64,000 bases of DNA from Deltaproteobacteria bacterium HGW-Deltaproteobacteria-14 (GTDB lineage Bacteria; Myxococcota_A; UBA9042; PHBI01). The DNA lies in assembly GCA_002841945.1 (NCBI GenBank), contig PHBI01000002.1:11972-75971 (forward strand), given 5' to 3'. Under the pieces are notes generated by a model. It was given only the letters and a program-made list of their open reading frames with translations, was not told where the DNA came from and made no database searches. The translations under genes and the position numbers were made by a program. Numbering within the stretch: position 1 is the stretch's first letter; each line of letters starts with the position of its first letter. Of the stretch, positions 1-31,296 are shown piece after piece.

Positions 1-347
1 GCGTTCGTCGTGAAGACGGCGAGGGCCTCGCCGGCCGGACCAGTCCAGAGCCGGCGGGGCTTCAGCGCGGTGCCATCGAGGAGTTTCGCGGCCTCCGAGG
101 CACCCAGTGCGCTACCCTTCCGCCAGCCGTCGTGTAAGCCGCAGGCATCGTCGAGGACCACGTCGAGGGCGGCGCCGAGGGCATCAGGGGCGGGCTTGTC
201 GGGGTCGAGGGCCACGAGGGCCGTGCGCAAGCGATCGGCGAGCCCCCACGGGGCCTTCTCTGGGGCCGGCAGCGCGTCGAGCGCCGTCGGGGAGAGCAGG
301 TTTCCCCCATGGCGGAGCGAGGTCCAGGCGTCGTGCAGGCTGGTCAT
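1..347 (-). CDS. hypothetical protein, 5' part of the gene only (gene runs off the window start); 4th gene of the SNF2-STAND-HEPN operon
   Basis: ATG at 347-345 overlaps the TGA stop of the upstream HEPN gene (ATGA overlap). Hand translation of the minus frame gives MTSLHDAWTSLRHGGNLLSPTALDALPAPEKAPWGLADRLRTALVALDPDKPAPDALGAALDVVLDDACGLHDGWRKGSALGASEAAKLLDGTALKPRRLWTGPAGEALAVFTTN... with no stop down to position 1. Not in the ORF track because it has no in-window stop. Confidence 0.4.
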   Translation of the reverse strand, partial: MTSLHDAWTSLRHGGNLLSPTALDALPAPEKAPWGLADRLRTALVALDPDKPAPDALGAALDVVLDDACGLHDGWRKGSALGASEAAKLLDGTALKPRRLWTGPAGEALAVFTTN

Positions 348-4500: not shown

Positions 4501-6960
4501 ATCGAGTGCGGTCAGATGCGTGTCCAGCGCGTGTTCCGTGAGCGCGACCGCGTCGGCCGCGATGGAGGCTTGTCCATCGGCGAGCTCGGCGAGGCGCAAA
4601 TGCAGTTCCCTCAGCTCTGCCGCGAGTTGCTGGAGCTCATCGTCGGATCTCTGTTGGTGACGTTCGAGTTCGCGGACGATGCTTGGAGAGAGATCGTCGG
4701 ATGTCGGAAGTAGGTCAGGACGATGAGAGGCAAGCCAGTCGTCGAGTTCGCCATCCGCGACGACGACCGGCGGCCCCAACAATCGAGCGGCGGCGCGAAC
4801 TGATTCGCTCACGCGTCGCGCATCGAGCTCCGGGGAGCTCGGAGTGAAGTCGGGCCACGCCTCAACCAGCAGCGGGCGGGCATAGACCGATCCTGCGGTG
4901 AAGACGGGCTCCACGATGTCATGGCGCTCGACGCCGAGGTGGCTGCGCACAAGTCCCACGATCCAGTTGTCGATTGGTGCACCACCCGTGGAGGAGCTGG
5001 CGGCGCCGACGGCGAGGTCACTGAATCGGGGTGCGTTGGCTGCACGCCGAGCCTCGGTCTTCGCACGCGCGTGGGCGTCGCGAGCCGTCAGAACAGCGGA
5101 CGCAAGTACCACCAGTTCTTCGACGCCCTTGTCCATATGGCGACGGTCTTTCAGCTTGGCTCCGCCACGGTCGAAGATCGCACTAGACTCCTCCCGTAGT
5201 CGCGCAAGGGTGCTTCTATCCGAGTCCTCGAGCCGAGATTCCGAGATACGCGACAACGTCGGCGCAGCGCCCCCCATGAAGTTGTCCCATGCACGCCGGC
5301 AGTGCGTGGTCTGCACGGTCCCTCCGGCAGCGCTGAAGAGTCTCTTCAGCGCTTCATGCAACGCGCCTGCGGCCTCGTGCTGTGCCGCCTCGAGCGCCGT
5401 GTCGGACAGGGGGGCAGCAAGCTGCCGCTCCAGAACCGCCGCCGCCGACGAGATCCTCTGGTGAACGAGCCACTCCTCAAGCAGCGCCCTGGTGCCCTCA
5501 TTGAGTCGGAGTTGCGTGCACAACTCCGAGATCGTCTCATCAGCGAGCGGGCAGGAGCTCGTGTCCAGGGCGAGCATTACAGCCGCCAGCCAGGTTCCTG
5601 GATAGGCCGGCTCGGCGGAGCCAGACGCGATGGCGACGCGGATACGGCGAACGAGATCTACCGGCAGCTCAGGGGAGGCGGACGGGCCACGGGCGAAGGC
5701 ACGCGTCCAGTCGAGCAACCAGGCCGGAGCGGCTTCGTCGAGTGCCAACTCGGCTGCGGCGGCACCCATGACATAGGCCGTGGCCCATTCCCCCGCTAGC
5801 AGGGCATGGGACTGGGCATCCACGATGGATTCGTTGAAGTCGTCCTTCGTCCACGGCGCCGGAGCGGCTGTGCCGTCCGGCTCGAGCCAGTAGTTGGCAA
5901 CGAAGTCCCTGCGTGGTGTCGCTTCGACCACCTTGCTCCCGACATCGAGTTGCAGCGGCGGACGGTCATCAGGCCGTTCGGGCGTCTGCTCGGTGCTCGG
6001 GGTTTCGTTCGCCGCAGAAACACCGACGTCCGCCGAGAGGTCGCCTGTGTCGGCTGGCCCAACGCCGGCTTGGTCTCCGTCACCCCTGACGAGCGCTTCG
6101 GGCTGGGACGCGAGGACCCTCGCAGGTTCGGCTGAGCCGCCCAGCGTGAAAGGTCGGGGCGGCTCAGCATCGGGACGGGGGAGCGTCGGCGTCAAGGTGT
6201 CAGGGGGCGCCCCCTCTGACGACGCGTCCTGGATGTTGACTTCGTCTTGAGTCGACGCCGCTGTTGTGTACCCGCCCTCATCTTCGGCAACGTCGGCGTC
6301 AGCTGGTTCGTCTGTTTCCGCTTCACCCGCCTTCGGGCCGGCGGCGGTCCACGCTGGCTCGTCGACAGTCGCCAGGAAATCGACAAGCGCTGGCATCGCA
6401 CCTCCGAGGCCGTCGATCACTCGCTCTTGGGTGCCGTTCTCCAGGGCCCAGAACCACCGGAGCCAAGATTCGCCGGGCCCGTCGGGGCCGTCGAAGCCCG
6501 TGGTGTTCGAGGCCCCCTCGGCCAGGATCCTCTCGAGCTCGGCTGCCGCCATCTCGCGTTGCTCCTCCCATCTCCGCGCGCGCCACCCACCCACGCATCG
6601 CCCACTGCGCAGCTCCGCAGCCAGAAGGCGAATGCGCCGCTCAGGGAGCTCGACCACCAACGCGTCGAGTGCCTCCAGGGCGTCCGTGACGCGGGCCCGC
6701 AGATCGTCCATGTCTACCGGCCAGACCTCGTCTGCGCGGCCGTCGTTGCTGAGCGTCTCGTGGGCGACGTGCAACGCGTCGCGCACGCGACGACCTGAGC
6801 GAAGGACGTCGTCGAGAGCCTGCTCGGCCACCGGCCGCGCGACGTCGGCCGCCCGCTCGAGCTCCGCCACAACAGCTCCGAGGCGTGTCACTCCGTCGAT
6901 GTGGCGGTCGATCGATTCCTTGAGGTGCTCACGCAGCTCAGCTGGTGACTGGGGGACCAT
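1594..6960 (-). CDS. 1788-aa STAND/AAA_16-like P-loop NTPase with ~1000-aa N-terminal extension (includes an acidic/Pro-rich low-complexity segment) and ~400-aa C-terminal region
   Basis: The FVGRQTEAEAL motif sits immediately before Walker A (SGRRLGKTALL), and Walker B is LLLLLDEAD. This is the hallmark of STAND/AAA_16 NTPases. The NTPase core lies at about aa 1040-1400. Residues ~150-400 are Ala/Pro/Glu/Asp/Thr-rich. Stop is 9 nt from the SNF2 gene start. Confidence 0.65.
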   Translation of the reverse strand: MVPQSPAELREHLKESIDRHIDGVTRLGAVVAELERAADVARPVAEQALDDVLRSGRRVRDALHVAHETLSNDGRADEVWPVDMDDLRARVTDALEALDALVVELPERRIRLLAAELRSGRCVGGWRARRWEEQREMAAAELERILAEGASNTTGFDGPDGPGESWLRWFWALENGTQERVIDGLGGAMPALVDFLATVDEPAWTAAGPKAGEAETDEPADADVAEDEGGYTTAASTQDEVNIQDASSEGAPPDTLTPTLPRPDAEPPRPFTLGGSAEPARVLASQPEALVRGDGDQAGVGPADTGDLSADVGVSAANETPSTEQTPERPDDRPPLQLDVGSKVVEATPRRDFVANYWLEPDGTAAPAPWTKDDFNESIVDAQSHALLAGEWATAYVMGAAAAELALDEAAPAWLLDWTRAFARGPSASPELPVDLVRRIRVAIASGSAEPAYPGTWLAAVMLALDTSSCPLADETISELCTQLRLNEGTRALLEEWLVHQRISSAAAVLERQLAAPLSDTALEAAQHEAAGALHEALKRLFSAAGGTVQTTHCRRAWDNFMGGAAPTLSRISESRLEDSDRSTLARLREESSAIFDRGGAKLKDRRHMDKGVEELVVLASAVLTARDAHARAKTEARRAANAPRFSDLAVGAASSSTGGAPIDNWIVGLVRSHLGVERHDIVEPVFTAGSVYARPLLVEAWPDFTPSSPELDARRVSESVRAAARLLGPPVVVADGELDDWLASHRPDLLPTSDDLSPSIVRELERHQQRSDDELQQLAAELRELHLRLAELADGQASIAADAVALTEHALDTHLTALDRAWLCHCRDKLRRRAGQLTDRLVAAALEEGLSQAEARRILASGDIGALLRALGQRPHSSGPRRYRATLYRRDAAKRWPDPLEALNRLIEPVQLDNDVKNVVSRWIDTTSKLRRRRLKDQDDAKLREAFVELVFKARALRRSSHVRNYTPRGDKTHYSQIDVESVQSWLVEGVNNPTFLPQISRYRTLSLKVSPLPSVSPALSRRIQSEATNQELTLILVPGLHEEQRRQIHDRLATASLAGPVALIDDLDLCRLLNVGGEAPDPLLALLELVAEQQRWSRFCPYEVVEGQHVRLEMFVGRQTEAEALATRATYSRIFSGRRLGKTALLRFVEGNPNLKTLPSGNNLRVVFCSIAGMETEQAVARAILSAVGELLDVKNGLDASDPVEHLKSTLPQRLAEHPDVSLLLLLDEADTFFAAQIESPTSERQQSLSWWMSRHAEEIRDQAGLPRIRFVFCGYLRTDQNRGVWENKGDVLLLGPLDADGAVELAAGPLARLGIDAREQADNIAFRCGYQPAVIIRFGLSLIEHLERTRPRQDREQVTVTAKDVVDVFLSNAVQNAIYEICWLNFVGHPRGKLIFAGLLMELQGRVPSAAIDDAPERILAHIQAVEGFDPTELGGEAWADLVRQELRGLVDRSLIVQTSHRPDEYRLRFPHHLPVLVQREPARHIRDALKRLRASGGTQQPTWLLSESVLESVRFCLSDLAVEADVRGAAVASHWLPPLVDADNGLARRLGLANGSDGTRVLTGKAAINALETLESRTEPVLLIGGSELARGAQRLQSRAGPIDLARTGRLSKGQVDSWLRRRRAAEFTALNPLDPIMRCTAGIPILVARFDELLATAHPEAPTLDAEALNGLVAALEASYGEIAAQLTTEGSELHLTLRERELIHMVARASEEFGDDLAAALRADIIEAGPRRFGPQDGDAIQVLLALGLLPRSPTRSGSPLDEVAPLRVDDPVLRIVPPSAG

Positions 6961-6969: not shown

Positions 6970-9900
6970 TCACCGTTCGGGAAGGCGGATCTCAACCGCA
7001 ATCGGATAGACGCGTGCCTCGCCGCGCAAGGCGTAGCGTTTGGGGAGGACCTGCTTCAGGGTGCGTTCGGCCTCGGCGGCGAGTCGCTCCTGCACCTGCT
7101 CGTAGTGGCCTTTCCGCAGGACGAGCTCGGCGTCGAGGTCGGCGAGGCGCTTCTGGACTTCCTGGTCGATATCCACGAAGAGGGCCAGCTGTCGCGCCTT
7201 CTCCCGGAGCTTGTCGGCTTCCTTCGCGATCTTTGCGAGTTGGTTCTCGCCGATCGCGCGCTCGAGCTCTTTCTTTCGTCGGTCGAAGCGCTTGCGCTCG
7301 AGATCTCGGACCGACTTGCCCGACGCCTGAAGGCGCAGCACGAGCGACTCTGTGAGTTCGGCTTGGAGGTTCCGCACGTGGGCCTTCACGGCATCCGCGA
7401 CCTCATCCCAGAGGTCGCGTGCGGCGTCGCGGTCGCCGGGAGCTCTTGGCCCATCCGAGGCTTGTGCAGGGCGATTGGACAGCGCCGCCCCGAGGGTGTC
7501 GCCGCGCACAGGCAGCACAATCGTCCGAACCCAATGGTGACACGGCTCGCGGAGCTCGTTCACCGCGAGCTCCTCGACCGTGAGCAGGACAAGGGCATCC
7601 GCATCGCTGGGAACGTCGCCGCTACGGACCGTCCAGCGCGTCGCCGCGCTCGGCCCGCCGGGGAATCGGTAGCGGGCGAAGGTCGACATGACGCGGTGGT
7701 AGAGCGCGTCGCCGAGGTGCAGCAGGCGCGAGTCGGGCTCAGGGAGGTAGACGGGCCGGCCGTTGCGAGGCTGTACGTAGTGTGCTGGGTCAAAGACGAG
7801 GGCGAGCATCGGTCCAGACGGCCCGCCGGCGCGCAGAGTGTGATCGACCAGTTCCTGCCACAGGGCCGGCACGGGGTGCACCAGGCGCTCGCGGCCCGGA
7901 CCGTCGTTCTCGAGGCGGGGACGGCCCGCTTCGATCGCGAGGGCGGTCTCGAGGGTCTCGCGCAGGCTGGCCGGTGAGAGATCGAGCTCGGTCTTGAGAG
8001 CTTCGAGATGAGCGAGGTCATCGGCGCCGGGCAGCGGTGCGCCGGCCGGCAGGTCATCCGCGACATCGGCGTTCGTTGCGTGAGCGTGGCCGATGACGCG
8101 GTCGAGCCTCTCGTCGCTGACCGCGGCATCCTCGTCCTCAGCGAAGTGGGCGAGGATCGCGTCCGAAAAGATCTCATCGGTGATGACGCGGTCTTCGCGG
8201 GTCTGGCTGCGCTTGCGTAGGACCTTGCCAAGAAAGCGCATCGAGGCGTCGTCGGTGCTGTCGAAGTGGAAGATGAAAACGTCACGCTCCTGACCGTGCC
8301 GATCGAGGCGCCCGTTGCGCTGTTCCATGCGGGCCGGGTTCCAGGGGATGTCCCAGTGCAGCATGTGGCGTGCAGCGCGTTGCAGGTTGAGCCCCTCGCC
8401 AGCGGCGTCGGTGGCGAGGAGGATGCGCGCGGGGCCCCGCGGGTCATTGAAGGCGCGCTTCACGGCATCGCGCTCTACGTCGTTCATGCCGCCGTAGAGC
8501 GTGATGAGCCACGGCCCATCGCCATAGCGGGCGCGAAGGTTGGCGCGTAGGTAGTCAAGGCTTGCCAGATACTCCGTGAAGACGATCAGGCGCTCGTCGT
8601 CCCGCCACCCCGTTGGCGTCCTCAGGGAACCATCGATCAGCGCCTCGAGAGCGCGCAGGCGAGCGTCGGCCTTCACTCGGACAGCGCGGGCGTCGACCTC
8701 AGCCATGTGGGATGCGGGGTCGAGACCCGGCGGAACACGCGTCACGCCGATCGCCGCGACGTGACGGGTCACCTCGGCGATTTCCTCGGCAACCGCTTGC
8801 TTCCATTGGCGCAGCCAGGCTCCCACGGTGCGTTCGGCGTGGCGCTGCCGGCTCTCCCGCTCGGCGTCGTTGTCGCTCTCGTCCGCGTGGGCGTTGCGAG
8901 CGCGCACGACCGTCGCCGCGGTGACGGCGTCATCAGGAGTATCGAGCCCCTCGATGAGCGCGAGCCAACTCTGGCCGAACGGCCACGGACCCGACAGAAG
9001 GCGCTTTTGCAGCACCTCCGTCGCGAAGTTCGCCGCCGTACGGTCTTGGTGGTCGGCACCCCGCAGCGCCTTCTTCAACGCACGTCGGAAGTCGCGCACG
9101 GCGAGGTGAAGCGCGCGTTCGTGGGCGCCGAAGTGAAGCGCGGGCAGCGCCTCGACGTGCCGCTCGGAGAAGCGCGGGGCCTCGCCGATGTCGGTGTAAC
9201 ATGTGTTGATCTCGCTCTTTAGCCGCCGGATGACGGCCTCTCCCACGCGACGACGGTCTTCATCGTCAAGGTCGGACTTGCGTGTGAAGCGCACCGGGTC
9301 GAGCGCCTCTAGGAGACCCGAGAACGAGCGTGTATGGCCGTTGTGAGGGGTTGCGGTGAGGAAGATCCGGTGTTCGAACCAGGGCGTGATGCGCTGGAGC
9401 ATCTTCGACAGGTCGGAGTCCGACCCGAAACTCGCGGGGGCGAGGTTGTGGGCCTCGTCGACGATGAGCAGATCCCAGCGGAGCCGTCCGTCCTCGCCCG
9501 GCTCGCTAGTGCTTCGGAACTGCTCGAGAACGTCGGGCTGCTTCAAGTAGTGGTAGCTCGCGATGATTCGCTCGTGACTGCGCCACGGGTTCGCGTCGAT
9601 GCCGATTTCGCGTTGCAGCTTGAGGGTCTGGGGCCTGTCGACGACCTCGAACGGTAGGGCGAACTTCTCCTGCATCTCGTCGCGCCATTGGGTGCGGAGC
9701 GCGGCGGGGCAGAGAACCAGCACACGCCGGATGCGGCGGCGGAGCATGAGTTCACGGAGGACCATGCCGGCCTGGATGGTCTTGCCGAGGCCGACGGCGT
9801 CGGCCAGCATCAGGGCGACGCGGGGCATCTCGAGGGCTCGGAGCACCGGCACGAGTTGGTACGCTTCCGGGTAGATCGCGCCGTAGAGTGGCGAGGCCAA

Positions 9901-10221
9901 TGGCGGCCTGTCCTCGTCGAGCCCGGAGAACGGGAGAGAGGGGGTCAGCGCCGACCAACGCGACGCGCGCACCATCGCGTCGAACTCGCGCGGTTCCATC
10001 GGCGAAGTGTGCTCGATGCGCGGGAGCGCGGCGGGCTCGAGGACATCAGTTCCGAGCTCGACCTCCCAAAGAACCTGGTCGGTCTCGACGCCGGTGCCGT
10101 CGGTATACTCCACCTCGACCAGGTGGTAGCGGCCCGCCTCCGCAGCGTCGAAGGGCTGGACGCCGGTGATCATCGCCCGGCGGTTCCTAACGACCGCCAT
10201 CATGCCCTCGCGCGGGTTCAT
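6970..10221 (-). CDS. SNF2-family (SF2) helicase/ATPase, 1083 aa, with ~400-aa C-terminal extension
   Basis: Motif I DAVGLGKTIQAG, motif II LIVDEAHNL (DEAH), motif III LTATPHNG, and helicase-C motifs (QRNGRLDRHGQ). Long coiled-coil-like C-terminus. Confidence 0.85.
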   Translation of the reverse strand: MNPREGMMAVVRNRRAMITGVQPFDAAEAGRYHLVEVEYTDGTGVETDQVLWEVELGTDVLEPAALPRIEHTSPMEPREFDAMVRASRWSALTPSLPFSGLDEDRPPLASPLYGAIYPEAYQLVPVLRALEMPRVALMLADAVGLGKTIQAGMVLRELMLRRRIRRVLVLCPAALRTQWRDEMQEKFALPFEVVDRPQTLKLQREIGIDANPWRSHERIIASYHYLKQPDVLEQFRSTSEPGEDGRLRWDLLIVDEAHNLAPASFGSDSDLSKMLQRITPWFEHRIFLTATPHNGHTRSFSGLLEALDPVRFTRKSDLDDEDRRRVGEAVIRRLKSEINTCYTDIGEAPRFSERHVEALPALHFGAHERALHLAVRDFRRALKKALRGADHQDRTAANFATEVLQKRLLSGPWPFGQSWLALIEGLDTPDDAVTAATVVRARNAHADESDNDAERESRQRHAERTVGAWLRQWKQAVAEEIAEVTRHVAAIGVTRVPPGLDPASHMAEVDARAVRVKADARLRALEALIDGSLRTPTGWRDDERLIVFTEYLASLDYLRANLRARYGDGPWLITLYGGMNDVERDAVKRAFNDPRGPARILLATDAAGEGLNLQRAARHMLHWDIPWNPARMEQRNGRLDRHGQERDVFIFHFDSTDDASMRFLGKVLRKRSQTREDRVITDEIFSDAILAHFAEDEDAAVSDERLDRVIGHAHATNADVADDLPAGAPLPGADDLAHLEALKTELDLSPASLRETLETALAIEAGRPRLENDGPGRERLVHPVPALWQELVDHTLRAGGPSGPMLALVFDPAHYVQPRNGRPVYLPEPDSRLLHLGDALYHRVMSTFARYRFPGGPSAATRWTVRSGDVPSDADALVLLTVEELAVNELREPCHHWVRTIVLPVRGDTLGAALSNRPAQASDGPRAPGDRDAARDLWDEVADAVKAHVRNLQAELTESLVLRLQASGKSVRDLERKRFDRRKKELERAIGENQLAKIAKEADKLREKARQLALFVDIDQEVQKRLADLDAELVLRKGHYEQVQERLAAEAERTLKQVLPKRYALRGEARVYPIAVEIRLPER

Positions 10222-10598: not shown

Positions 10599-10985
10599 TC
10601 ATGCGCCACGCCCGAAGATGGTCACGAGTTCGGCGACCGCTGATGCGCTCCCGCGATAGTACTTGTCGAGCTGGGCGATGATGACCCAATGCTTCTTCGC
10701 GGTCGGGAGCGCGAGCCAGTACGTGTACGTCAACTCGCCGAACAGCGTGACCGAGGCGGCTCGGTGCGGCTGAGCCGCTCGGTTGGTAGCGTGGCGCCAG
10801 GCGCGGGTGAGCTCGGCGCTCGGGGCGAAGCGGCCCGGGACGGCGAGCTGGGAGGTCGCGTTCTTGCCGAGGGCGTCCTTGCCGCGAAGCATCAGGCCCT
10901 GCACGACCGCCTCGACGACGGCGTTGGCGTCTATCGGGACACGGACGTTGTTGCCTATGTCGAAGCGGGCGCTCGAGGCGGTCAT
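10599..10985 (-). CDS. 128-aa hypothetical protein, paralogous (C-terminal motif) to the ORF at 17232-17453
   Basis: 20 nt downstream of the helicase stop on the same strand. The C-terminus LTYTYWLALPTAKKHWVIIAQL is 12/20 identical to GYEYWLTVPSAEKDRFIVALLL in the 73-aa ORF. Confidence 0.45.
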   Translation of the reverse strand: MTASSARFDIGNNVRVPIDANAVVEAVVQGLMLRGKDALGKNATSQLAVPGRFAPSAELTRAWRHATNRAAQPHRAASVTLFGELTYTYWLALPTAKKHWVIIAQLDKYYRGSASAVAELVTIFGRGA

Positions 10986-11004: not shown

Positions 11005-13089
11005 TCAGGCGGAGGCGGGCGCGGGGGCGCGGAGCAGGTCGGCGAGGAATGGAGATGGCTCGCCGGTCCACGTGACCGTGAGGTCGTCGCGGGCGCGGGT
11101 CATAGCGACGTAGAGGAGGCGGCGCTCGCGAGCGATGGCGTCGTCGCGGTCCTGGGGGTCGGGCATGAGGAGCGCGCGGCGTGTCGGGAGGCGGTCGGCG
11201 CCGACGCCGTGGACGATCACGGCCTTGAACTCGAGCCCCTTGGCGTTGTGCATGGTGGTCATGCGAACGCCGGGGCGGTCATCGCGGGCGGGCTCGTTGG
11301 GGTCGAGGCGGCACACGTCGTGACCGGCGGCGAGGAGCGCGCTCTGAAGGGCGTTGAGCTCGGCGTGGGTGTGGGCGAATACCCCGATCTCTTCCTCGCT
11401 CGCGTGACCCGCGGCCAAGATGCGTGAGACGGTCTGGCAGGCGACGCGACGTTCCTCGGCGACGTTCGACGCGGGGACGAGGGACGGGTCGGGGCCGGTC
11501 ATGACGCTGCGGGTGCCGTGGCGGTCCTCGGTGCCCTCTTCGAAGTCGTCGACGGTGTGGCCGAGGACCTGCTCGGCGGCGCGGCGGATCTGATGGGTCG
11601 TCCGGTAGTTCACGCGGAGGACGCGGGAGCGGCCGCGGGTCTCGACGCCGAGGCGGACGAGGGAGAAGCCGCCTGGGTAGATGCGCTGGCCGGCGTCGCC
11701 GACGAGCATCAGGTGGCCCGGGTGCGCGGTGGTGAGAGCGACGAGGAGGCGGATGTCGGGGACCGAGAGGTCCTGGACCTCGTCGACGATGACGGCGGTG
11801 TAAGGGGAGTGCTGACCGGTAGCGAGCGCCTCGGCGGCGGCGGTGCTGAGCGTCGGGAAGGTGTATTCGTTGGCGACGCGCATCGCGGCGAGGAAGATGC
11901 TGAAGACCTGCCACAGCGCCTTTCGCTGAGCGGCGCCGAGGCCGGTGCCGCGGCCGATGCGGCGGGCGCTGCGGTACTCGGGCCAGGTGGTGATGCCCTG
12001 GGGCATGATGACGTGGTCGAGCTCGGCCTCGATGAAGTCGAAGGGCCACGGCACGGCGGGGGCGTCGGCGATGGCGCGGTGGAGGCGGGAGCGGACCTCT
12101 GCGTTCGTCGTGAGCAGGGTCGGCCGGCGCGATCCGGCGGCGTCGACGATGTCGTAGGCGATGGCCTTGACGGTGCGGACGACGATGCGCTCGCGGGTCG
12201 TGGCGTCACAGAGGAGGTCGAGGAGGCGTTCGACGCTTCGGCAGAGGGCCTTGGTGAACGACGTCAGGAGCACGCGCTCGCCCGTCTGGGCGAGGTAGTG
12301 GGCACGGTGTACTGCGACGATGGTCTTGCCGGTGCCGGCGCTGCCGCTGACCTTGGAAGGGCCGGAGAAGTCGCGGGCGACCATGTCGCGCTGGTCGGGG
12401 TGGAGGAAGGTGATCCAGGTTTCGAGCGGCGCGGCGAGGGCACGCGCGAGGGCGTCGGCGTCCTCGGGGGCGTAGAAGCGCCGCGAGAGGTCGGGCGCGG
12501 CGGTAACCGGCTGATCCGGGGCGATGGGGGTCGGAGGGACGACCAGATCGCCGAGGCCGAGATTGAAAAGGCGCTCGCTGACGTCGGGGGCGAGCGTGGG
12601 GTCGCAGCAGAGGGTGGCGAGATCGTCTTCGGACCTGACCTCGCGAGCGAGGGGCAGCCACTCGGGCGGGAGACCGAGAGACAGGAGGTAGTCGTCCGAG
12701 TGGGCCGCAAAGCGAGGCGGGTCCTGGGTGACCGTGCGGGTGATGACGCGTTCGCGGACGCGCTCGACCTCTTGGATGTCGACGATCTCGAAGGTGCCGG
12801 TCTGGACGTTGCGGCCGGTGCGGCGGCGCTCGGCCCAGCGGTAGGCGTCATCGTGGTGGTCGACGTGGAGTAGGAGCCAGTGGTCACCGTCCCGGTAGAG
12901 GATGGCGCGGAGATCCTGACTGATTCGGGCCGACCAGACGCCGTCGCCGTGGGGGTTCTGGACGCGGTGGAGCTGAATCCCCGGGTGGGCCGGGTTCTCC
13001 TGGAAACGGGCGATGAAGGCGTTGGCCTGTGCCTGCTCAGTGGCGGCGAGGGTGGCGAGTTGGGCGAAGAGGTCGCGTGAGAGGAGCAT
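11005..13089 (-). CDS. UvrD/PcrA-like SF1 helicase (694 aa) with RelE/ParE-toxin-like N-terminal domain
   Basis: Walker A GSAGTGKT and Walker B VIVDEVQDL. The N-terminal ~90 aa (ENPAHPGIQLHRV...VWSARISQDLRAILYRDGDHWLLLHVDHHDDAY) fits the RelE/ParE pattern (...YRiiYri.d..v.il.v.hR.d.Y). Confidence 0.8.
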   Translation of the reverse strand: MLLSRDLFAQLATLAATEQAQANAFIARFQENPAHPGIQLHRVQNPHGDGVWSARISQDLRAILYRDGDHWLLLHVDHHDDAYRWAERRRTGRNVQTGTFEIVDIQEVERVRERVITRTVTQDPPRFAAHSDDYLLSLGLPPEWLPLAREVRSEDDLATLCCDPTLAPDVSERLFNLGLGDLVVPPTPIAPDQPVTAAPDLSRRFYAPEDADALARALAAPLETWITFLHPDQRDMVARDFSGPSKVSGSAGTGKTIVAVHRAHYLAQTGERVLLTSFTKALCRSVERLLDLLCDATTRERIVVRTVKAIAYDIVDAAGSRRPTLLTTNAEVRSRLHRAIADAPAVPWPFDFIEAELDHVIMPQGITTWPEYRSARRIGRGTGLGAAQRKALWQVFSIFLAAMRVANEYTFPTLSTAAAEALATGQHSPYTAVIVDEVQDLSVPDIRLLVALTTAHPGHLMLVGDAGQRIYPGGFSLVRLGVETRGRSRVLRVNYRTTHQIRRAAEQVLGHTVDDFEEGTEDRHGTRSVMTGPDPSLVPASNVAEERRVACQTVSRILAAGHASEEEIGVFAHTHAELNALQSALLAAGHDVCRLDPNEPARDDRPGVRMTTMHNAKGLEFKAVIVHGVGADRLPTRRALLMPDPQDRDDAIARERRLLYVAMTRARDDLTVTWTGEPSPFLADLLRAPAPASA

Positions 13090-13092: not shown

Positions 13093-13449
13093 TCAGACCT
13101 CGGGAGCGGGGGGAAGGTCGAGCAGTGCCACCAGCTGGTCGAGCGCGTCGGGTGCCGTGGCTCGGAGCGCGATGGCGATGGTGCCATCGGCGTCGGGGCC
13201 GGCGACGGCGGTCGACGCTGCGGGGTCCTCGGCGTCGAAGAGGTGGACCACGCGGGCGCCGGTGGGTGCCCCCAGCCGGTAGACGAAGCCGGCGACGGAG
13301 CGCCTGTAGCCATCGATGAGGTCGTCGCTGTATCGGAAGACGTCCATGTCGCCTCGGCTGGACCGGCTGCGAACCGCGCACCCGTCGGGATTCGGGGGCA
13401 CGATACGCGGGCGGCCGGGGGTTGCCAACCGCGGCAGAGGTTGATGCAC
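13093..13449 (-). CDS. small hypothetical protein (118 aa; alternative start at 13347 gives 84 aa) immediately upstream of the RelE-like helicase
   Basis: ORF on the operon strand with its stop 4 nt before the helicase start. No recognisable motifs. Possible partner or antitoxin-like protein, by position only. Confidence 0.3.
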   Translation of the reverse strand: MHQPLPRLATPGRPRIVPPNPDGCAVRSRSSRGDMDVFRYSDDLIDGYRRSVAGFVYRLGAPTGARVVHLFDAEDPAASTAVAGPDADGTIAIALRATAPDALDQLVALLDLPPAPEV

Positions 13450-13491: not shown

Positions 13492-16400
13492 TCAGGGCCG
13501 AGACGTCAACTTCCGGATGTGGCGAGCCAGGTGCTTCTCGTAGAGGTCGGCCCGCACTTCGAAGCGGCAGACAGGACAGCGACCGAACCCGCCGGCGCTC
13601 GAGCTTCGGTCGAGCGGGTGGGAGGCGACGATGTGGCGCGCGAGCTGGGCCGTTCCCATTGGGGCGTTGCAGATAGGACACCCGGGGCCCACCGACCGCT
13701 TTGGGGTTGGCGCCCTGCCCTTCTTTGCGTGGCTCTTGGCCGGCGCCGCCGCTTTGACTGTGGGCGCGCGGGCGGGCAGTGCTGATGGCGTGGGGACCGA
13801 CGTTGTTGACTTCGGGGAAGGGATGCTCTCGAGCGGCGCGCCGTCGCCATCGGGCGGGCGGTCGGACTCGGCGACCAGGAGGCAACGATCGATGTCTTGG
13901 ATGATGCGCGTGAGCCTCGCGCCCTCGGTATTCGCGTCCGAACCTTTGCCGGACACCCAGAGCACCGAGCGCGCCCTGGTCATCGCGACATAGAGGTTCG
14001 TGGCGAGGATGCCGCCGGCTTTGTGCACGAACCCGTCGGCGCAGGCGACAGCGACAATCTCGGCGTCGTGCCCTTTGAAGGAGTGGGGTGTCGAGACCAC
14101 GATGGTGTCATCGCTCGAGGTCAGCTGTTCACTGGCCTGGGCGATGATCTTGGCGCCCGCGCGCTTCACCACGGGAGTAAGGGTGGCCTCGATCTTGCCG
14201 CAGTGGGAGAGCCTGTTGGCGATGATCCGTATGTCGCGCGGGCGGACACCCTCGTTGCGAATCCACTTCTCGATCTGCTGGCCGAGCGTCTCCAGCTCGG
14301 CATCCCGGGAACCGAACAGCTCGACCTGAGGCCGAGGCCCGTCGACGTGGCAGAACCTGACCCGCCACCACGGACGCTTGCCGGCGTGACCCTCTACGAC
14401 GAGGCCACGCTCGAGCAGCTCGCGATGGTCCGGGTCTTCACGCGGTGGGAGAAGCCGGTACAGCAGATTGAGCGCAAACTCGGTGATGGGCCGCGTCGAA
14501 CGAAAGCTTTCCTTCATGACCGTGGAGCGGCCTCGCATGTCGATCCCGAGGTCTGACCACTGGGGCGTCCCGCGTCCGTAGATGTTCTGGGCGTTGTCGA
14601 AGAAGATCACCGCTTGCCGCCGGTTGCTAGCCGAGTCGACCGGCTTCACGAGTTGGTGGAGCAAGCGGAGCGTCTCAGGGCCCATGTCTTGGCCTTCGTC
14701 GACGAACACGGCGTCGCACAAGGGCTTTGGTCTGCCGACGTTCGTGAGGTAGCGGGCCGCCTGGGTGTTGTAGTCGAAGGGATCACCCCGATAGTAGACC
14801 CCCGCGGCCTGCATCAAGAGCCCAAGAAGCTCCTTGATGTGAAAGTACGAGACTTGCTTCGTGGCTGGGTCGAGGCCACGCACCCGCAGGGCGTCGCTGA
14901 CCATGCCGTCGAGCAGGCCCTTCAGGGCTGCGTTTCCGTACACGATCCACAGCGCGCCACGCGGCTTCTCTTCGAGCGTCCGCGCGACCCAGGATGCCAT
15001 GACGACCGTCTTCCCGCTGCCCGCGACGCCGCGCACGAGGCGCGGGCCGCCGTCCATCCTCATGTTGCAGAGGCGCTCCTGCTCCGCGCTCAACAGCCTC
15101 AGCATGGAGCCCCGGTCGTCGAGCTGGGCGCCGAGCGTGGTGGGGTCCGACGCGCGGACCTTGGCCGAGGGTTCGTGGGCGACTTTGGCGGGCACGGCCT
15201 CCCAACGCGTTCGAGGGCCGCGGCCGCGGAGAACGCGCGGAGCGATGTGGTCGACGAGGGAAGCGAGGAATGGTTGCTGCATCTCGTCGCGACTCGCGAT
15301 GAGAAGCACGACCTGCTTGGCGCGGCTCAAGCCGACATTGACGAGTCGCATCCACTCGTGCGTGGGCCACGCCGTGCTCGACGCGTGCACCGTGTCGAAG
15401 ATCACGTAGTCGGCCTCGGCACCTTGCTGAGCATGGATCGTTGACGCCCGCCAGTGGTCGCGGGCGACGGGGTGGTTCGCCAGCCACTGACGGATCTCGC
15501 GCCCCTGGGCGACGAACGGCGACACGAAGAGCCCCGGTCCGCGCGCGAGCTTCGGGTGCGCGTCGAACACTTGGCGGAGCACATCGATGGTCATCGGCCG
15601 GTGCCAACTGCCGCCGCGTTCGGGGCGCTGCGCGCGGAAGGCGGCCGGGGACGATGCCTCTTCGTCGAGGACGTACCACAAGGCCCGAGGCTGCGACTTC
15701 AAGAGAGGATCGAGGTCGGCGCCGGCGGCGACCGCTGGGATCGGTGGGGCGTCCTCGAGCCGGCCGTCGTACTGGTAGTTGGACACGAGTTCGCGGATCT
15801 GAGGCGCCATACGCCACTGCGCGGTGAGCATCACCGTCGACGATGTGAGCGTCGTGGGCGTGAGGTGTGCGAGACTGCTCTCTCCAAGCCACCGCATCCT
15901 GCGCGGTACTTCGACGCGCGCCACGCGAGAGATCGGCGCGAGTTGTCGGGGGTCCCCGACAAGGATGACGCGGGTGCCCGCGTGGAGGGCGAGCGCTGCC
16001 GTGGCAGCTCTCGAGACCAACCCAGCCTCGTCGATGATAACCGTCGAGAAAGGCGGCGGGCCCCCCATCACCGGAGACTGTTCAGCGTCGGCGAGGATCT
16101 GTACTGCCTTGAAAGCGGTCGCAATGACGACCTGGTGTCCGGGATCGAAGAGCGCCAGGTCGGCTTCCCGGAGCTGCTTGCGTAGCGCCTCGATTTCTCG
16201 CTTGATCGCGGCGCGCTCCTCTGGTCGCGTTACGCGGTCCAACTCACGGCGCTTCGCGTTCAGCTCGGCGCGGATTGCGGTTTCGCCGCCGTCGAGGAGC
16301 TCCGTCGCGTCCGCGGCGCGGTAGCGCGTGAGGTCGGCACCGGCGCCAATCCGAAGGACCCTCGTGAGATCCGCCTTCTGTGACCTGCGACGCATCGCGC

Positions 16401-17103
16401 CAACGATACTCAGAGCGGCGCCATCGGTAGCCTTGTTCGTCGTGGAGACGACCAGAATGCGCTCGCCGGACCGCGCGGAGGCAGCCGCGACGAGCTCCCC
16501 GAGGCTGTGGGTCTTGCCGGTCCCGGGCGGACCCCAGAGCACGGTCCAGCGGTGCCCCCAAAGCGGCTCGAGCGCAGGCACTCCGAGACGCGATGCTGGA
16601 ACTGAGACAGCCGGGACCGTGCCAGCCGAGAGGCCGAGCGCCGCCCCGATGAGCCCCGCAGGTCCCCGTCCGGCCTGCTGATAGACCTCATGGAGGAACC
16701 GCGTGAACTCGAACGGCTTGACGATGAAGTCGCCGGGCGTCGGCGCGCCCGAACCGTCCTTGAGACCGATGAAGATGTCCCCAGCGTCGGCATCGATTTC
16801 ATAGACCGTCCCGCTCCATGCGTACCGGGACGCCTCGAAGGAGCCGGGACCGGCGATGTCATCGAAGTCCAAGGGGCGAAACGCGAAGCCCCCCTCCCAA
16901 CTCGAGTCGAGCTCGACGCGCCCGACGTGGACGCGGACGATGCTCTGGTCGGTCACGAGCGGGCGATCCACGCGGTGAGCGGCGATTCGAAGGCTCCGGC
17001 TACATACCCGATGTTCCGCGGCGACCGCGTCGCGTGCCTCGGCGAACCAAGTCGGACCAGCTTCGTGTCGGTGCGATGGTCTCCGGCTCGTCGACATCGC
17101 CAT
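13492..17103 (-). CDS. 1203-aa tandem SF1 helicase: Upf1/DNA2-like (AAA_11/AAA_12) core followed by UvrD-like core, with two C-terminal C2H2-like zinc fingers
   Basis: First core: GPPGTGKTH ... VIIDEAGLV ... VILVGDPRQLAPI. Second core: GVAGSGKTVV ... VFVDEGQDMG. C-terminus: CPICNAPMGTAQLARHIVASH and CPVCRFEVRADLYEKHLARH (C-x2-C-x11-H-x3/5-H). Confidence 0.8.
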   Translation of the reverse strand: MAMSTSRRPSHRHEAGPTWFAEARDAVAAEHRVCSRSLRIAAHRVDRPLVTDQSIVRVHVGRVELDSSWEGGFAFRPLDFDDIAGPGSFEASRYAWSGTVYEIDADAGDIFIGLKDGSGAPTPGDFIVKPFEFTRFLHEVYQQAGRGPAGLIGAALGLSAGTVPAVSVPASRLGVPALEPLWGHRWTVLWGPPGTGKTHSLGELVAAASARSGERILVVSTTNKATDGAALSIVGAMRRRSQKADLTRVLRIGAGADLTRYRAADATELLDGGETAIRAELNAKRRELDRVTRPEERAAIKREIEALRKQLREADLALFDPGHQVVIATAFKAVQILADAEQSPVMGGPPPFSTVIIDEAGLVSRAATAALALHAGTRVILVGDPRQLAPISRVARVEVPRRMRWLGESSLAHLTPTTLTSSTVMLTAQWRMAPQIRELVSNYQYDGRLEDAPPIPAVAAGADLDPLLKSQPRALWYVLDEEASSPAAFRAQRPERGGSWHRPMTIDVLRQVFDAHPKLARGPGLFVSPFVAQGREIRQWLANHPVARDHWRASTIHAQQGAEADYVIFDTVHASSTAWPTHEWMRLVNVGLSRAKQVVLLIASRDEMQQPFLASLVDHIAPRVLRGRGPRTRWEAVPAKVAHEPSAKVRASDPTTLGAQLDDRGSMLRLLSAEQERLCNMRMDGGPRLVRGVAGSGKTVVMASWVARTLEEKPRGALWIVYGNAALKGLLDGMVSDALRVRGLDPATKQVSYFHIKELLGLLMQAAGVYYRGDPFDYNTQAARYLTNVGRPKPLCDAVFVDEGQDMGPETLRLLHQLVKPVDSASNRRQAVIFFDNAQNIYGRGTPQWSDLGIDMRGRSTVMKESFRSTRPITEFALNLLYRLLPPREDPDHRELLERGLVVEGHAGKRPWWRVRFCHVDGPRPQVELFGSRDAELETLGQQIEKWIRNEGVRPRDIRIIANRLSHCGKIEATLTPVVKRAGAKIIAQASEQLTSSDDTIVVSTPHSFKGHDAEIVAVACADGFVHKAGGILATNLYVAMTRARSVLWVSGKGSDANTEGARLTRIIQDIDRCLLVAESDRPPDGDGAPLESIPSPKSTTSVPTPSALPARAPTVKAAAPAKSHAKKGRAPTPKRSVGPGCPICNAPMGTAQLARHIVASHPLDRSSSAGGFGRCPVCRFEVRADLYEKHLARHIRKLTSRP

Positions 17104-18034: not shown

Positions 18035-20731
18035 GTGAGTGAAAGCAACCCAAGCGAAGCCACCATCCCAACCGCGGCAGCGCTTCGCCAACCCAGCATG
18101 ACCGGCACAGCGGCCGCGATGATAATCATCATCGTGCTGGTCGGCGTGGTGACCTTCGCATCAGGTCATTCGCTCATCGCGTCGCTTGTTGACGCGATGT
18201 CGAGCCCCGTGACGTGGGTGGTCTTCGCACTCGTGGTTTCGCTCGCGCTGGTGGGCGGGCACCTGCGAGGCCGGGGCCACCTTGCCGCGAAAGGAGTCGT
18301 GACGACCGCGAGGAGGATCGCCCGGCAACACGAACCAGCGGACGCGGACAGAGGGATCCCTCCTATCAAGCTCGATTCATTCGAGAGTGAGATCACCGAG
18401 CCGTATCTCATCGGGGTCTGGAAGGAATTCCGACGGAGTCTCGTGGACCGCGATGGGCGCTACTTCAAGGTCATGGACGCGAGCCGCTTCTTCGAAGACG
18501 ACGGGCTCGCGAGCGCCATCAAAGGGAGCGTGTGGCGGGCCGAGCCCAGCTACTCCTTCATCCACGAGTTGCCGGGCTTCATGGTCGGCCTCGGAATGCT
18601 CGGGACCTTCATTGGTATCGCCGTTGGGCTCGGACAACTCCAAGGGGTTGCGCAGGACGGCCAAGGCTTAGCCGTCGAGGGAGTGCAGAAGATCGCGCAG
18701 CACAGCACAGCCATCGTCGACAAGATTCCAAGCGTGATCGCTGGACTCGCGTCGGCGTTTTGGACGAGCATAATCGGCCTCATCGGGGCATCCCTGATGA
18801 CGTGGTTCAACCACAAGTCGGATAGTGCCCTGGGCAGCGCAATGGCGCTCTTTCGCCTCGAGCTCGACCGGTGCATCCCGCGGTCGAGCCAAGAGTTCTT
18901 CCTACGTCAGCAGACCTCGGCTCTACGAGAGATCAAGGACCTCCACGAGCAGGCGAATGACTTTCTTGGCGAAATGACGAACGATCTCGCAGACGAGATC
19001 GCGCGCGGCACTGGTGAGGTCATCGTCGGGCAGCTCTCCCCGATCCTGCACGGCATCGAGCGGGCCGTCAGAGAACAGATCGAGAACGCGGCTGTGCGCT
19101 CCGAGGACATGCTCCTTGCGCTCGTCGAGGAGCTGAAGGACAAGTTCGTAGCCGGATTGGACAACAGCGTCACCAAGATGGCGGCCCAGAACGAGCAGAT
19201 GACGAGCGCGTTCTCAGCGGTGACGCGCGACCTCGAGACGCACGTCGCAGGTGCGGTCTCCACATTCAGAGAGGGGATCGAGGGCGCCGGCGAGCACATG
19301 AACAAGGTGTTCGGCGAGACCTCGGACGCGTTCGCGGCAAAGCTCGGAGACGCGTCGACGGCGGTCGCCGAGTCACTCGGGGACAGCTCCAAGGCTCTCG
19401 CCAGCACGCTTGGCGTGGCGTCGAGCTCGTTGGCGTCATCGCTGGGCGACACATCTACCGCGTTCGCGAAGACGCTCGGCGAGTCCTCGAACGCCGTTGC
19501 GAACACGCTCGGGACGGCGTCGAGCTCGCTCGCTTCCTCGCTCGGGGACACCTCCAGGGCCTTCGCCAACACGCTCGGCGAATCCTCGAGCGCCGTTGCG
19601 AGCTCACTCGGGACGGCGTCGAAAGCATTGGCATCCTCACTCGAGAGTACGTCGAGCGCCTTCTCCGACAAGCTCAGCGAGGCTTCCGCCAATGTCGCAA
19701 CGTCGCTCGCGAGCGCTGCGACGAGCATGGCAGAGACCCTCGATGGTACAGTTGCCCGCGTCCGCGATGGGGTCTCCGACCTCGGAAGCCAGATGACTGA
19801 CGCGCTCACCGAGGCGACGACGGCAATGCGTCGGGGAATCGAAGGCGCACTGACGCCCCTCGAAGCCACCCTGCATACGCTCTCCGACGTCGTTGGCGCG
19901 CTTGGCGAGCAAGCGAGGATCCACGTCGACCTCCTCGAGCGCCACCAAACCACGGCTACGACCATGGGCGAGGCCGCGGAGAGGATAGCGCCCGCCCTCG
20001 AGTCCATCGTCGGTAGCCACCGCGAGTTGGCGTCGACGGTCCGCTCCCTCGAGCTGTTGTTCGACGAGCTCAGGACCACGCGAGACGCGCTCGCGGTCGT
20101 ACCCGGGGAGATTCGCGCTGGCCTCGGCGCCGCGACCGCGGAGCTGGCTGGAGCCGCGAACTCGCTGGCACCTGTGGCGGCCCAACTCGAGCGCTGGGGC
20201 GCGACCGTAGGCGAGTCACTCGAGGCACTCGAGAAGCAGGCCCAACTCCAACGCGAACAGCTCGAACAGCAGCGCGCAGCGACGAGGGAGCTCGGAGTTG
20301 TCGTCACGTCGTTCACGCCTGCGCTGAAGCAGGTCATTGGCTTCACGCAACAGCTCGAGGAGGTCGTCACGAGTATGGACGACGGGCTGGCCGAGCTCGC
20401 CGCCACACGCGGGACTCTCGAGAAGACGAACCTCGCGATCACGACCGGCCTCCGAACAGCGAGCGCGAACCTCAACGCCACAGCCGCTGGCCTCGGCCCT
20501 CTGACGGTGCAGATGCAGCGTTGGGCTGAAGCCAGCGGGAAGTCCCTCGAGGTGTTCGGCGCTACCATGCATGCGCACCTGCGCGATGCGCTGTCCGCGT
20601 TCGATGGCGCGCTGAGCGAGTCGGTTCGAGGGTTGGCGGAGGCCGGGGAGGAACTCATCGGAGTCGCCGACCGGATCAGCTTGCGGGTCGAGAGCATCGA
20701 GCGTTCAAACCCGCCACCGCGAGCCGCATAG
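18035..20731 (+). CDS. zorA: ZorA (MotA/TolQ/ExbB-like proton-channel subunit with ~600-aa repetitive tail), type I Zorya
   Basis: N-terminal TM helices. MotA/ExbB channel signature LPGFMVGLGMLGTFIGIAVGL. Long C-terminal tail of 11-residue repeats (SLGDTSxAFAxTLGESSxAVA...). Followed by a MotB-like gene. Confidence 0.8.
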   Translation: MSESNPSEATIPTAAALRQPSMTGTAAAMIIIIVLVGVVTFASGHSLIASLVDAMSSPVTWVVFALVVSLALVGGHLRGRGHLAAKGVVTTARRIARQHEPADADRGIPPIKLDSFESEITEPYLIGVWKEFRRSLVDRDGRYFKVMDASRFFEDDGLASAIKGSVWRAEPSYSFIHELPGFMVGLGMLGTFIGIAVGLGQLQGVAQDGQGLAVEGVQKIAQHSTAIVDKIPSVIAGLASAFWTSIIGLIGASLMTWFNHKSDSALGSAMALFRLELDRCIPRSSQEFFLRQQTSALREIKDLHEQANDFLGEMTNDLADEIARGTGEVIVGQLSPILHGIERAVREQIENAAVRSEDMLLALVEELKDKFVAGLDNSVTKMAAQNEQMTSAFSAVTRDLETHVAGAVSTFREGIEGAGEHMNKVFGETSDAFAAKLGDASTAVAESLGDSSKALASTLGVASSSLASSLGDTSTAFAKTLGESSNAVANTLGTASSSLASSLGDTSRAFANTLGESSSAVASSLGTASKALASSLESTSSAFSDKLSEASANVATSLASAATSMAETLDGTVARVRDGVSDLGSQMTDALTEATTAMRRGIEGALTPLEATLHTLSDVVGALGEQARIHVDLLERHQTTATTMGEAAERIAPALESIVGSHRELASTVRSLELLFDELRTTRDALAVVPGEIRAGLGAATAELAGAANSLAPVAAQLERWGATVGESLEALEKQAQLQREQLEQQRAATRELGVVVTSFTPALKQVIGFTQQLEEVVTSMDDGLAELAATRGTLEKTNLAITTGLRTASANLNATAAGLGPLTVQMQRWAEASGKSLEVFGATMHAHLRDALSAFDGALSESVRGLAEAGEELIGVADRISLRVESIERSNPPPRAA

Positions 20732-20742
20732 CGAGGACGTGA

Positions 20743-23120: not shown

Positions 23121-23133
23121 TTGGCTGCTGAAG

Positions 23134-29258: not shown

Positions 29259-29363
29259 CGACTTCTCCGCTCGCCCGGCGGTCCTCCCCCCCCGCCCGTC
29301 GGCGCCCCGCGCTCTCGCGTGCCTTAGCTTGTCCGGGGGCGCGGCCGCTGGTACCGTCGCGAA

Positions 29364-31253: not shown

Positions 31254-31296
31254 CCAGACAGGAGGCCACAGGGCCGCATCGAGGCCCGTCGCGGTG

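Follow-up and report, generated by a model that had tools for sequence, protein, structure and literature searches.

Why should a helicase carry a toxin-like domain at its N-terminus? The question is raised by an open reading frame (ORF) on the minus strand of a 64,000-nucleotide (nt) stretch of DNA from Deltaproteobacteria bacterium HGW-Deltaproteobacteria-14 (contig PHBI01000002.1, positions 11,972 to 75,971; this whole stretch is the window, and its own numbering is used throughout). An earlier note on this DNA had proposed a RelE/ParE-superfamily domain fused to the N-terminus of a UvrD-like helicase, and the fusion was borne out by AlphaFold2 (AF2) modelling, Foldseek, profile searches and Pfam; what the note read into it was supported in part. 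The ORF is intact, encodes 694 amino acids (aa) and occupies exactly the interval assigned to it in that note (11005-13089). Its product is an ArmD-family protein, a full-length homologue in which all helicase motifs are intact. Because the RelE-like/UvrD-like architecture has already been published as ArmD of the ARMADA type II system, of which the window protein is a divergent member, the locus does not represent the discovery of a new architecture; what is new in this analysis is the mapping of the YoeB catalytic set onto ArmD and its conservation across the family. Taken as a whole, it is probable that the window holds an ArmD member with a YoeB/RelE-fold N-terminus whose cassette has been broken up, and that this copy is most likely an orphan.

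ArmD-family membership and the RelE/YoeB-like fold

ARMADA type II consists of ArmA (a BrxHII/RapA-like SNF2 helicase), ArmB (a PglX-like methyltransferase), ArmC (a YprA-like helicase) and ArmD (Bell et al. 2025, bioRxiv, PMC12458937). According to that paper, all four genes of the Escherichia coli system are essential and protection is direct and non-abortive; ArmC is described as a YprA-like helicase-nuclease, the ArmD substitution K266A abolishes defence and D454N causes a partial loss. The annotation of ArmD as RelE-like is attributed there to an HHpred match with 3BPQ_D (E 0.0085). A requirement for ArmD was confirmed by a second group (the OI-172 study, mBio 2026, PMC13463889).

The window protein and E. 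coli ArmD align end to end in BLASTP with 33% identity (E 4e-110; aa 3-682 of the window protein against aa 10-701 of its counterpart), an alignment that includes the RelE-like N-terminus and pairs the Walker A lysine K255 with K266 and the Walker B aspartate D436 with D454. The E. coli cassette was taken from O157:H7 strain F6667 (WP_001041505.1, WP_001229642.1, WP_000937974.1 and WP_000218177.1), and these accessions are exactly those listed for ArmA-D in Table S2 of PMC12458937; a homologue of ArmD is present on both plasmids and chromosomes of E. coli. Of 108 columns that are invariant among orthologues the window protein keeps 102; with six deviations, it departs from them more often than any other member. 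An identical database entry (P0121, from the metagenome-assembled genome (MAG) of Deltaproteobacteria HGW-14) is annotated as 'DNA helicase UvrD'. The parts of the protein are as follows.

11005-13089, minus strand: ArmD-family ORF, 694 aa, with a RelE/YoeB-like domain, a helical linker and a UvrD/GajB-like superfamily 1 (SF1) helicase
12826-13089, minus strand: RelE/YoeB-fold core, aa 1-88, with beta1, alpha1, alpha2, a four-stranded sheet and alpha3 (AF2, Foldseek, YoeB profile matches)
12736-12825, minus strand: family-specific beta-hairpin followed by a helix, aa 89-118, consensus RRxxxRHxxTGxLQxVE (AF2, conservation)
12550-12702, minus strand: small helical linker domain, aa 130-180, DDYLLSLGVPxxWLP... 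(AF2 helices 132-178; predicted local distance difference test score (pLDDT) 81-92)
11020-12417, minus strand: UvrD/GajB-like SF1A helicase core, aa 225-690 (Pfam, PADLOC, Foldseek)
12322-12345, minus strand: Walker A motif GSAGTGKT with K255 (motif search)
11770-11787, minus strand: Walker B motif VDEVQD with D436 (motif search)

Single-sequence searches did little to settle the fold of the N-terminal domain. Against Pfam the window protein alone scored 18.9 bits with PF24732 (cut-off 24.4) and 15.4 bits with PF05016 (cut-off 23), both ParE-type and both sub-threshold, so that the fold call of the earlier note, drawn from a peptide that corresponds to residues 25-89, needed independent support; neither these two families nor PF05015 reached the gathering cut-off. 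A phmmer search of aa 1-110 as a single sequence against the PDB returned spurious matches only, and neither NCBIfam nor PADLOC holds a model for the domain. Searching with aa 1-225 recovered a large, well-conserved family (consensus ...FWSvRVsrDiRiIvHk...llaYVDHHDdAYkWAERRRie.Hp.TGa.QiVEv...), several members of which carry the JGI labels 'RelE' or 'YoeB', and 45 of 55 homologues matched PF05015 (HigB-like/RelE) at E<=0.1 (best E 8.4e-5).

The AF2 model of aa 1-225, in which pLDDT is about 90 over residues 1-105, shows a strand, two helices, a four-stranded sheet and a helix (beta-alpha-alpha-beta4-alpha), followed by the hairpin and a further helix; the two N-terminal helices pack on the antiparallel sheet, as in the RelE/ParE superfamily. 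The earlier note had named a match to a different fold as the outcome that would tell against it, and in Foldseek all of the top 50 PDB matches belonged to the RelE superfamily (RelE, YoeB, YafQ, HigB, ParE and the RelE domain of Cami1). The best was Methanocaldococcus jannaschii RelE (3bpq_B; target-normalised TM 0.77, rmsd 2.5 A, 86 columns), the same structure, 3BPQ, that underlies the published HHpred annotation. Profile comparison had to be made with the domain alone, since a profile of aa 1-225 that took in the helicase starts of the homologues matched only PcrA, through the helicase part. With the domain-only profile the six best PDB sequences were YoeB-type toxins, led by 8yxv_F (E 8.9e-4), and hhalign paired the domain with E. 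coli YoeB (83.5% probability, E 8.4e-6) and gave no match with E. coli RelE (0.1% probability). The RelE-fold assignment is thereby confirmed by four independent lines of evidence, far beyond chance.

Members of the superfamily of the ParE type are not RNases and lack the RNase catalytic residues. Of the two affinities that the earlier note had left side by side, RelE-like or ParE-like, the first stands, in the form YoeB/RelE-like, and the second does not: models of ParE, the gyrase poison, stay below cut-off, the best relatives are YoeB proteins, and the domain is named YoeB/RelE-like because its catalytic-type residues are conserved.

Beyond the fold core, the extension at aa 89-118 is absent from free YoeB/RelE toxins, and within the ArmD family R88, R89, H94, T97, G98 and Q101 are conserved there. 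The linker domain has its own invariant residues (Y134, S137, L138, G139, P141 and W144) and is followed by a low-confidence linker (aa ~181-224), of which segment 202-220 has pLDDT <50. The full-length AF2 model reached a pLDDT of 87.4 and a predicted template modelling score (pTM) of 0.70.

The same fusion was sought in other genomes and is not peculiar to this one. More than 120 clusters of proteins of ~690 aa are 46-52% identical to the window protein over the full length, and a genome scan found at least 480 ArmD-family loci in Myxococcota, Planctomycetota, Cyanobacteria, Acidobacteriota, Deinococcota, Chlorobiota, Bacteroidota and Proteobacteria. In an exhaustive search of representatives the complete architecture was present in ~130 clusters (50% identity); the search profile became full length (693 positions, through sequence weighting), so this count measures the whole fusion and not the N-terminal domain alone.

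Short proteins that appeared to be stand-alone N-terminal domains were considered as a free toxin and proved to be frameshifted or truncated ArmD-like genes. At loci L022, L032, L087 and L089, in-frame stops, frameshifts or a missing helicase part have left the ArmD-like genes interrupted or truncated; decay of ArmD may be common, and some of these cases may be MAG assembly errors.

Catalytic-type residues and the role of the N-terminal domain

Catalysis by YoeB relies on Glu46 as general base and on His83 as general acid; the transition state is stabilised by Arg59 and Arg65, and Tyr84 serves to orient the RNA (PMC3814384). All five positions have counterparts in the window protein, the tyrosine by inference.

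12961-12975, minus strand: QLHRV, with H41 aligned to the YoeB general base Glu46 (hhalign)
12898-12936, minus strand: WSARISQDLRAIL, with R55 and R61 aligned to YoeB Arg59 and Arg65 (hhalign and HMMER alignments)
12841-12858, minus strand: HHDDAY, with H79 aligned to the YoeB general acid His83 (hhalign and HMMER) and with Y83

Y83 is the candidate equivalent of Tyr84, displaced by a three-residue insertion, and the equivalence has to be inferred because Y83 lies outside the aligned block. Absence of the catalytic residues from orthologues had been set out in the earlier note as a finding that would speak against a RelE-type domain. Across 301 ArmD-family N-termini from more than 10 phyla, each position is at least 98% conserved: position 41 is histidine in 158 and glutamate in 139 (297/299 homologues), R55 is found in 294/299, R61 in 297/300, H79 in 295/297 and Y83 in 297/299. 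YafQ likewise has a histidine in place of the YoeB glutamate (PMC3814384). The domain as a whole is conserved to the same degree as the helicase, with a mean pairwise identity of 0.58 compared to 0.59. Such a pattern shows strong purifying selection on what is, by alignment, a putative RNase-like site. The residues H41, R55, R61, H79 and Y83 correspond to E48, R62, R68, H88 and Y92 of E. coli ArmD, which provides concrete targets for mutation; with the set pinned down across the family, the role of the RelE-like domain becomes directly testable.

These observations suggest a model in which the N-terminal domain of ArmD would form a functional phosphate/RNA-binding site and would probably be a catalytically competent RNase. 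Restraint of the putative RNase would come in cis, from the helicase or the ARMADA complex, rather than from an antitoxin. Its action would be local and would not shut down the cell; possible targets are phage transcripts, or RNA that is associated with ribosomes or RNA polymerase (RNAP) and is met by the translocating helicase. That the domain is a competent RNase with substrate access gated in this way is a proposal we make tentatively. If true, the near-invariant H/E-R-R-H-Y set would be an active site, and ARMADA II, so far described as a DNA-level relative of DISARM and Druantia, would include an RNA-cleaving or ribosome-coupled step.

Three points weigh against this proposal. Non-abortive defence by ARMADA II argues against global mRNA cleavage. 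The geometry of the active site may differ, as the His-Tyr of YoeB forms a flexible free C-terminus whereas the ArmD chain continues, with the three-residue insertion before the tyrosine and a helix and hairpin beyond it. Finally, neither PMC13463889 nor PMC12458937 contains experiments on the RelE-like domain. Alternatively, the RelE-fold domain could be inert and repurposed, serving as an RNA/DNA-binding or docking module, such as a tether to ribosomes, RNA polymerase or ArmC. A repurposed nucleic-acid-binding fold was one of the two alternatives of the earlier note, the other being a toxin domain licensed by helicase activity. The non-abortive defence reported in PMC12458937 would fit an inert module. 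So would the fact that the His-Tyr pair, a free C-terminus in YoeB, has given way in ArmD to an internal motif, behind which come a conserved helix and hairpin; the ParE-type members of the superfamily, by established knowledge, are themselves not RNases. An inert module would sit uneasily with position 41, where only histidine and glutamate occur (297/299), the general-base residues of YafQ and YoeB, a restriction that is unusual for a purely structural part. On this evidence the inert module is a possibility that we hold with less than moderate confidence.

Gene context of the family and of the window copy

The gene context of ArmD relatives was compared at 80 genome loci. In the closest relatives (52% identity) a YprA-like helicase of 1840 aa (DEAD, Helicase_C and MZB domains) is followed by ArmD, an SNF2 protein of 962 aa and an N6_Mtase/Eco57I-type methyltransferase of 1345 aa, with the genes abutting or overlapping. 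A YprA/DruE-like gene lies <=160 nt upstream of ArmD in ~34 of the 80 loci, and an SNF2 gene directly downstream in 24, with a PglX-like methyltransferase after the SNF2 gene. These are the genes of ARMADA II, arranged in the cyclic order C-D-A-B. The order was observed in Myxococcota, Planctomycetota and other relatives (L001, L003, L008 and L081-L084, versus L086); for E. coli-type ARMADA II, PMC12458937 calls the order A-B-C-D strict.

At L081-L084, ArmB is followed by a DUF4325 protein, a 432-aa protein without assignment and an SF1 helicase of ~1248 aa (AAA_11/AAA_19/UvrD_C_2), and a helix-turn-helix (HTH) gene stands upstream of the cassettes; a conserved extended island may be present.

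ArmD-like helicases were also found outside ARMADA. A second subfamily (36-39% identity) stands directly behind pairs of ResIII(+RE_endonuc) and N6_N4-methyltransferase genes that resemble Type III restriction-modification (R-M) systems, in ~18 of the 80 loci (including L039, L040, L050, L087 and L089), with DrmD, a PIF1-like helicase or DUF6361 sometimes following; in the sections consulted, PMC12458937 gives a gene set for ARMADA II that does not include such an arrangement. In two further proteins, P0273 (1951 aa) and P0324 (2017 aa), which are 42% identical over their full length, an ArmD-like part is fused to C-terminal Cas4/RecB-like nuclease motifs (IIDMKR; CEWCPY..HC) and an Upf1-like SF1B helicase.

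In the window, ArmD is the third of seven minus-strand ORFs that are separated by short gaps between 344 and 17103. Its neighbours in this array are listed below.

13492-17103, minus strand: tandem SF1 helicase, 1203 aa, in place of armC (Pfam AAA_11, AAA_12 and UvrD; PADLOC MkoA-like, E 1.5e-40)
13117-13263, minus strand: relic of the armC 3' end, inside ORF 13093-13449 (ArmC C-terminus hidden Markov model (HMM))
13400-13428, minus strand: promoter-like site in the armC-relic ORF, ~310 nt upstream of the ArmD start (TTGGCA-17-TATCGT, 9/12 matches)
10773-10967, minus strand: armA relic, from an internal segment of the gene, within the 128-aa ORF 10599-10985 (ArmA HMM)
6970-10221, minus strand: DrmD/ArmA-like SNF2 helicase, 1083 aa (NCBIfam DISARM_DrmD 625.9 bits, cut-off 610)
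1594-6960, minus strand: P-loop protein, 1788 aa (sub-threshold AAA_22 on its C-terminal third, 23.2 bits, cut-off 27)
344-1597, minus strand: 417-aa protein without family match (ORF)

Profile matches show the two small ORFs that flank ArmD to be remnants of armC and armA. An HMM built from the C-terminal 260 aa of 30 ArmC-like proteins matched ~50 residues of the upstream ORF at profile positions 207-255 of 258 (E 4.8e-5 against the six-frame background of the whole window; the next noise match has E 0.008), and the stop codon of this ORF lies 3 nt ahead of the ArmD ATG, reproducing the tight ArmC-ArmD junction of the relatives. Downstream, an HMM of 17 ArmA-like SNF2 proteins, 937 positions long, matched ~65 residues with its positions 608-669 (E 5.7e-5 on the whole-window background; next noise E 2), and tblastn matches of the 128-aa ORF fall within the SNF2 genes of L020, L018, L038, L010 and L005. 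Both matches are on the correct strand, in frame and in syntenic position. They were found by the family HMMs alone; when the window was searched by tblastn with ArmC, ArmA and ArmB proteins, no relics were detected beside ArmD.

The other parts of a complete cassette are missing. No YprA-like gene (ArmC) was found anywhere in the window, and no cassette methyltransferase (ArmB): the 1788-aa protein encoded behind the SNF2 helicase shows neither a methyltransferase motif nor a family match, and the sole weak ArmB-like match in the window is the HsdM gene of a Type I system, at a distance of 20 kb. GC content by codon position speaks for a mosaic composition of the ArmD region. GC content at third codon positions (GC3) is 0.91 in ArmD, 0.84-0.88 in the relics and 0.71-0.83 in the flanks, compared to ~0.95 in the host core; the gene of the 1203-aa helicase has 0.82. 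As armB is absent, armC and armA appear to persist only as relics, and the flanks differ in composition, the window copy is most likely an orphan that would be unable to provide ARMADA defence alone. A weaker possibility is that intact orphan copies of ArmD keep a function independent of ArmA-C. The locus would illustrate the turnover of a defence island, in which the essential partners of a component are overwritten and the component itself persists intact.

Two observations count against an orphan left by a broken cassette: the matches to the relics are short and, at 17-18 bits, low in absolute score, and the ArmD ORF shows no decay and stands in a tight same-strand array with an ArmA-like SNF2 helicase. 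The array could instead be a re-wired functional cassette, composed of the tandem SF1 helicase, ArmD, the DrmD/ArmA-like SNF2 protein, the 1788-aa P-loop protein and the 417-aa protein, as the seven same-strand ORFs with their short gaps and the intact ArmD would suggest. The SNF2 protein is 28.8% identical to E. coli ArmA over 532 aa (E 1e-45), while the SNF2 proteins of the canonical relatives match E. coli ArmA at E 1e-23 to 1e-26. It is therefore at least as similar to E. coli ArmA as they are, so that an ArmA-equivalent may persist in the window, and a surviving or replacement ArmA-equivalent is possible from this similarity. The ArmD-like part of P0273 and P0324 is moreover fused to a nuclease and an Upf1-like helicase, a domain class that is also present in the 1203-aa neighbour.

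What makes a re-wired cassette unlikely is the absence of a methyltransferase and of a YprA helicase, both essential in E. coli according to PMC12458937, together with the mosaic composition and the isolation of the neighbouring components. The 1203-aa helicase stands beside ArmD in 0/80 loci, and the 1788-aa protein, which has a P-loop-like GRRLGKT and the motif LLLLLDEAD, found only its self match among 5.8 billion clusters; none of the 1203-aa, 1788-aa and 417-aa products has an orthologue in the 80 related loci.

The 1203-aa helicase combines Upf1-like AAA_11/AAA_12 domains, a UvrD-like domain and a C-terminal zf-Di19-like zinc finger. It was considered as an orthologue of the ArmD fusion partners and set aside, the resemblance being at the level of generic helicases only. 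Its TGA stop shares the reading frame of the armC-relic ORF, a coincidence that could arise by chance (1 in 3).

The relic upstream of ArmD also bears on a tempting toxin-antitoxin reading. The 118-aa ORF at 13093-13449 (minus strand), confirmed here directly upstream of ArmD, had been suggested by the earlier note as an antitoxin-like partner, whose product would neutralise the RelE/ParE domain in the manner of a toxin-antitoxin module. In favour of such a module, only 3 nt separate the end of the ORF from the ArmD start, its GC pattern is coding-like, and the RelE-fold domain keeps its catalytic-type residues. The ORF has no Pfam, NCBIfam or PADLOC match and no counterpart in the 80 related loci; its C-terminal ~50 residues instead match the ArmC C-terminus. 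In canonical loci the gene abutting the ArmD start is that of the YprA-like helicase ArmC (~1850 aa), and no small conserved ORF precedes ArmD in any of the 80 loci, so that an adjacent, co-conserved antitoxin gene of the type II kind is lacking. E. coli ARMADA II likewise comprises four genes without an antitoxin, according to PMC12458937. The family-wide synteny contradicts the toxin-antitoxin reading, which we regard as very improbable, and shows that the ArmD family has no cognate antitoxin gene; what looked like an antitoxin is corrected to one of two relics, of armC and armA. The promoter-like sites in the region (two found compared to 0.3 expected) are a hint only.

The helicase core carries both UvrD domains in addition to its Walker A and B motifs. 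PF00580 (UvrD-helicase; 60.6 bits, cut-off 23) and PF13361 (UvrD_C; 74.8 bits, cut-off 25.6) cover residues 230-675, the PADLOC GajB models match at E 5e-29, and Foldseek places the full-length model closest to UvrD, PcrA and Rep (E ~1e-21). An ordinary housekeeping helicase for DNA repair, of the UvrD/PcrA/Rep kind, as the public annotation 'DNA helicase UvrD' would have it, could claim these domains and structural neighbours but is contradicted, to the point of being almost inconceivable, by the extra N-terminal domains, the defence-island location, the conserved ARMADA synteny and scores far below cut-off with the NCBIfam UvrD/PcrA/Rep/HelD equivalogs (43-80 bits compared to 419-1144; 62-80 compared to 911-1144 for pcrA, uvrD and rep alone). 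Pfam, NCBIfam and PADLOC detected no GajA-like (OLD-family nuclease) gene next to ArmD, as a Gabija system would have.

Beyond the array, a type I Zorya system lies near the ArmD cassette (18035-26181, plus strand). ZorA matches NF033914/NF033915 and ZorD matches NF041790 (E 9e-103), with two unassigned ORFs in the positions of ZorB and ZorC. The C-terminus of ZorD (25906-26160, plus strand) resembles the C-terminal ~90 residues of ArmC-like proteins (tblastn E 3e-7, HMM E 1.9e-9), a likeness in a DUF559/Vsr-like region which suggests a nuclease-like module common to Zorya and ARMADA components. Further defence genes at 26400-44709 extend the island to at least 45 kb.

26400-28352: GmrSD
30075-31253: Fic
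31455-37067: complete Type I R-M system (HsdS/HsdM/HsdR)
38623-44709: DUF4011/MTES_1575/DUF3320 helicase-nuclease, Hhe-like, 2028 aa

Comparison with known systems

The nearest characterised relative is E. coli ArmD (WP_000218177.1), which has the same full-length layout of RelE-like N-terminus, linker and GajB/UvrD-like helicase and shares the Walker A lysine, the Walker B aspartate and the E/H-R-R-H-Y set with the window protein. Position 41 differs, being glutamate in E. coli and histidine in the window protein. The loci differ further: the window has no ArmB, ArmC is represented by the relic only, and behind the armA relic comes another SNF2 gene, of the DrmD-like kind, while the E. coli order A-B-C-D contrasts with C-D-A-B in the relatives of the window protein. 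ARMADA II and Zorya co-localise in E. coli OI-172 (PMC13463889), and in the window too a Zorya system stands near ArmD.

DISARM class I and Druantia share component classes with this locus. The window SNF2 protein passes the NCBIfam DrmD cut-off, and the ArmC proteins of the relatives match PADLOC DruE models (E 1e-98). Neither system, as defined, includes a RelE-UvrD helicase, and the window has no DrmA, DrmB, DrmC or DruE. With GajB, UvrD, PcrA and Rep, ArmD shares an SF1A core with all motifs; it differs from them in ~225 extra N-terminal residues, the lack of a GajA partner and equivalog scores below cut-off.

The N-terminal domain resembles the YoeB/RelE toxins (E. coli YoeB 2a6q, Streptococcus pneumoniae YoeB 8yxv, M. 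jannaschii RelE 3bpq) in fold (TM 0.77 to 3bpq_B), in sequence profile and in the conserved positions of Glu46, Arg59, Arg65 and His83. Unlike these toxins it is not a free protein of ~85 aa and has no antitoxin gene, and its chain runs past the His...Tyr motif into the conserved helix, the hairpin and the helicase. A further parallel is Cami1 (8phj), a CARF-RelE fusion of type III CRISPR signalling. Its partner is a CARF domain rather than an SF1 helicase, its activating signal is cA4, and it has no homology to ArmD beyond the RelE fold; yet, like the arrangement proposed here, it places a RelE-fold RNase on a regulatory or sensor module within an immune system that works without an antitoxin.

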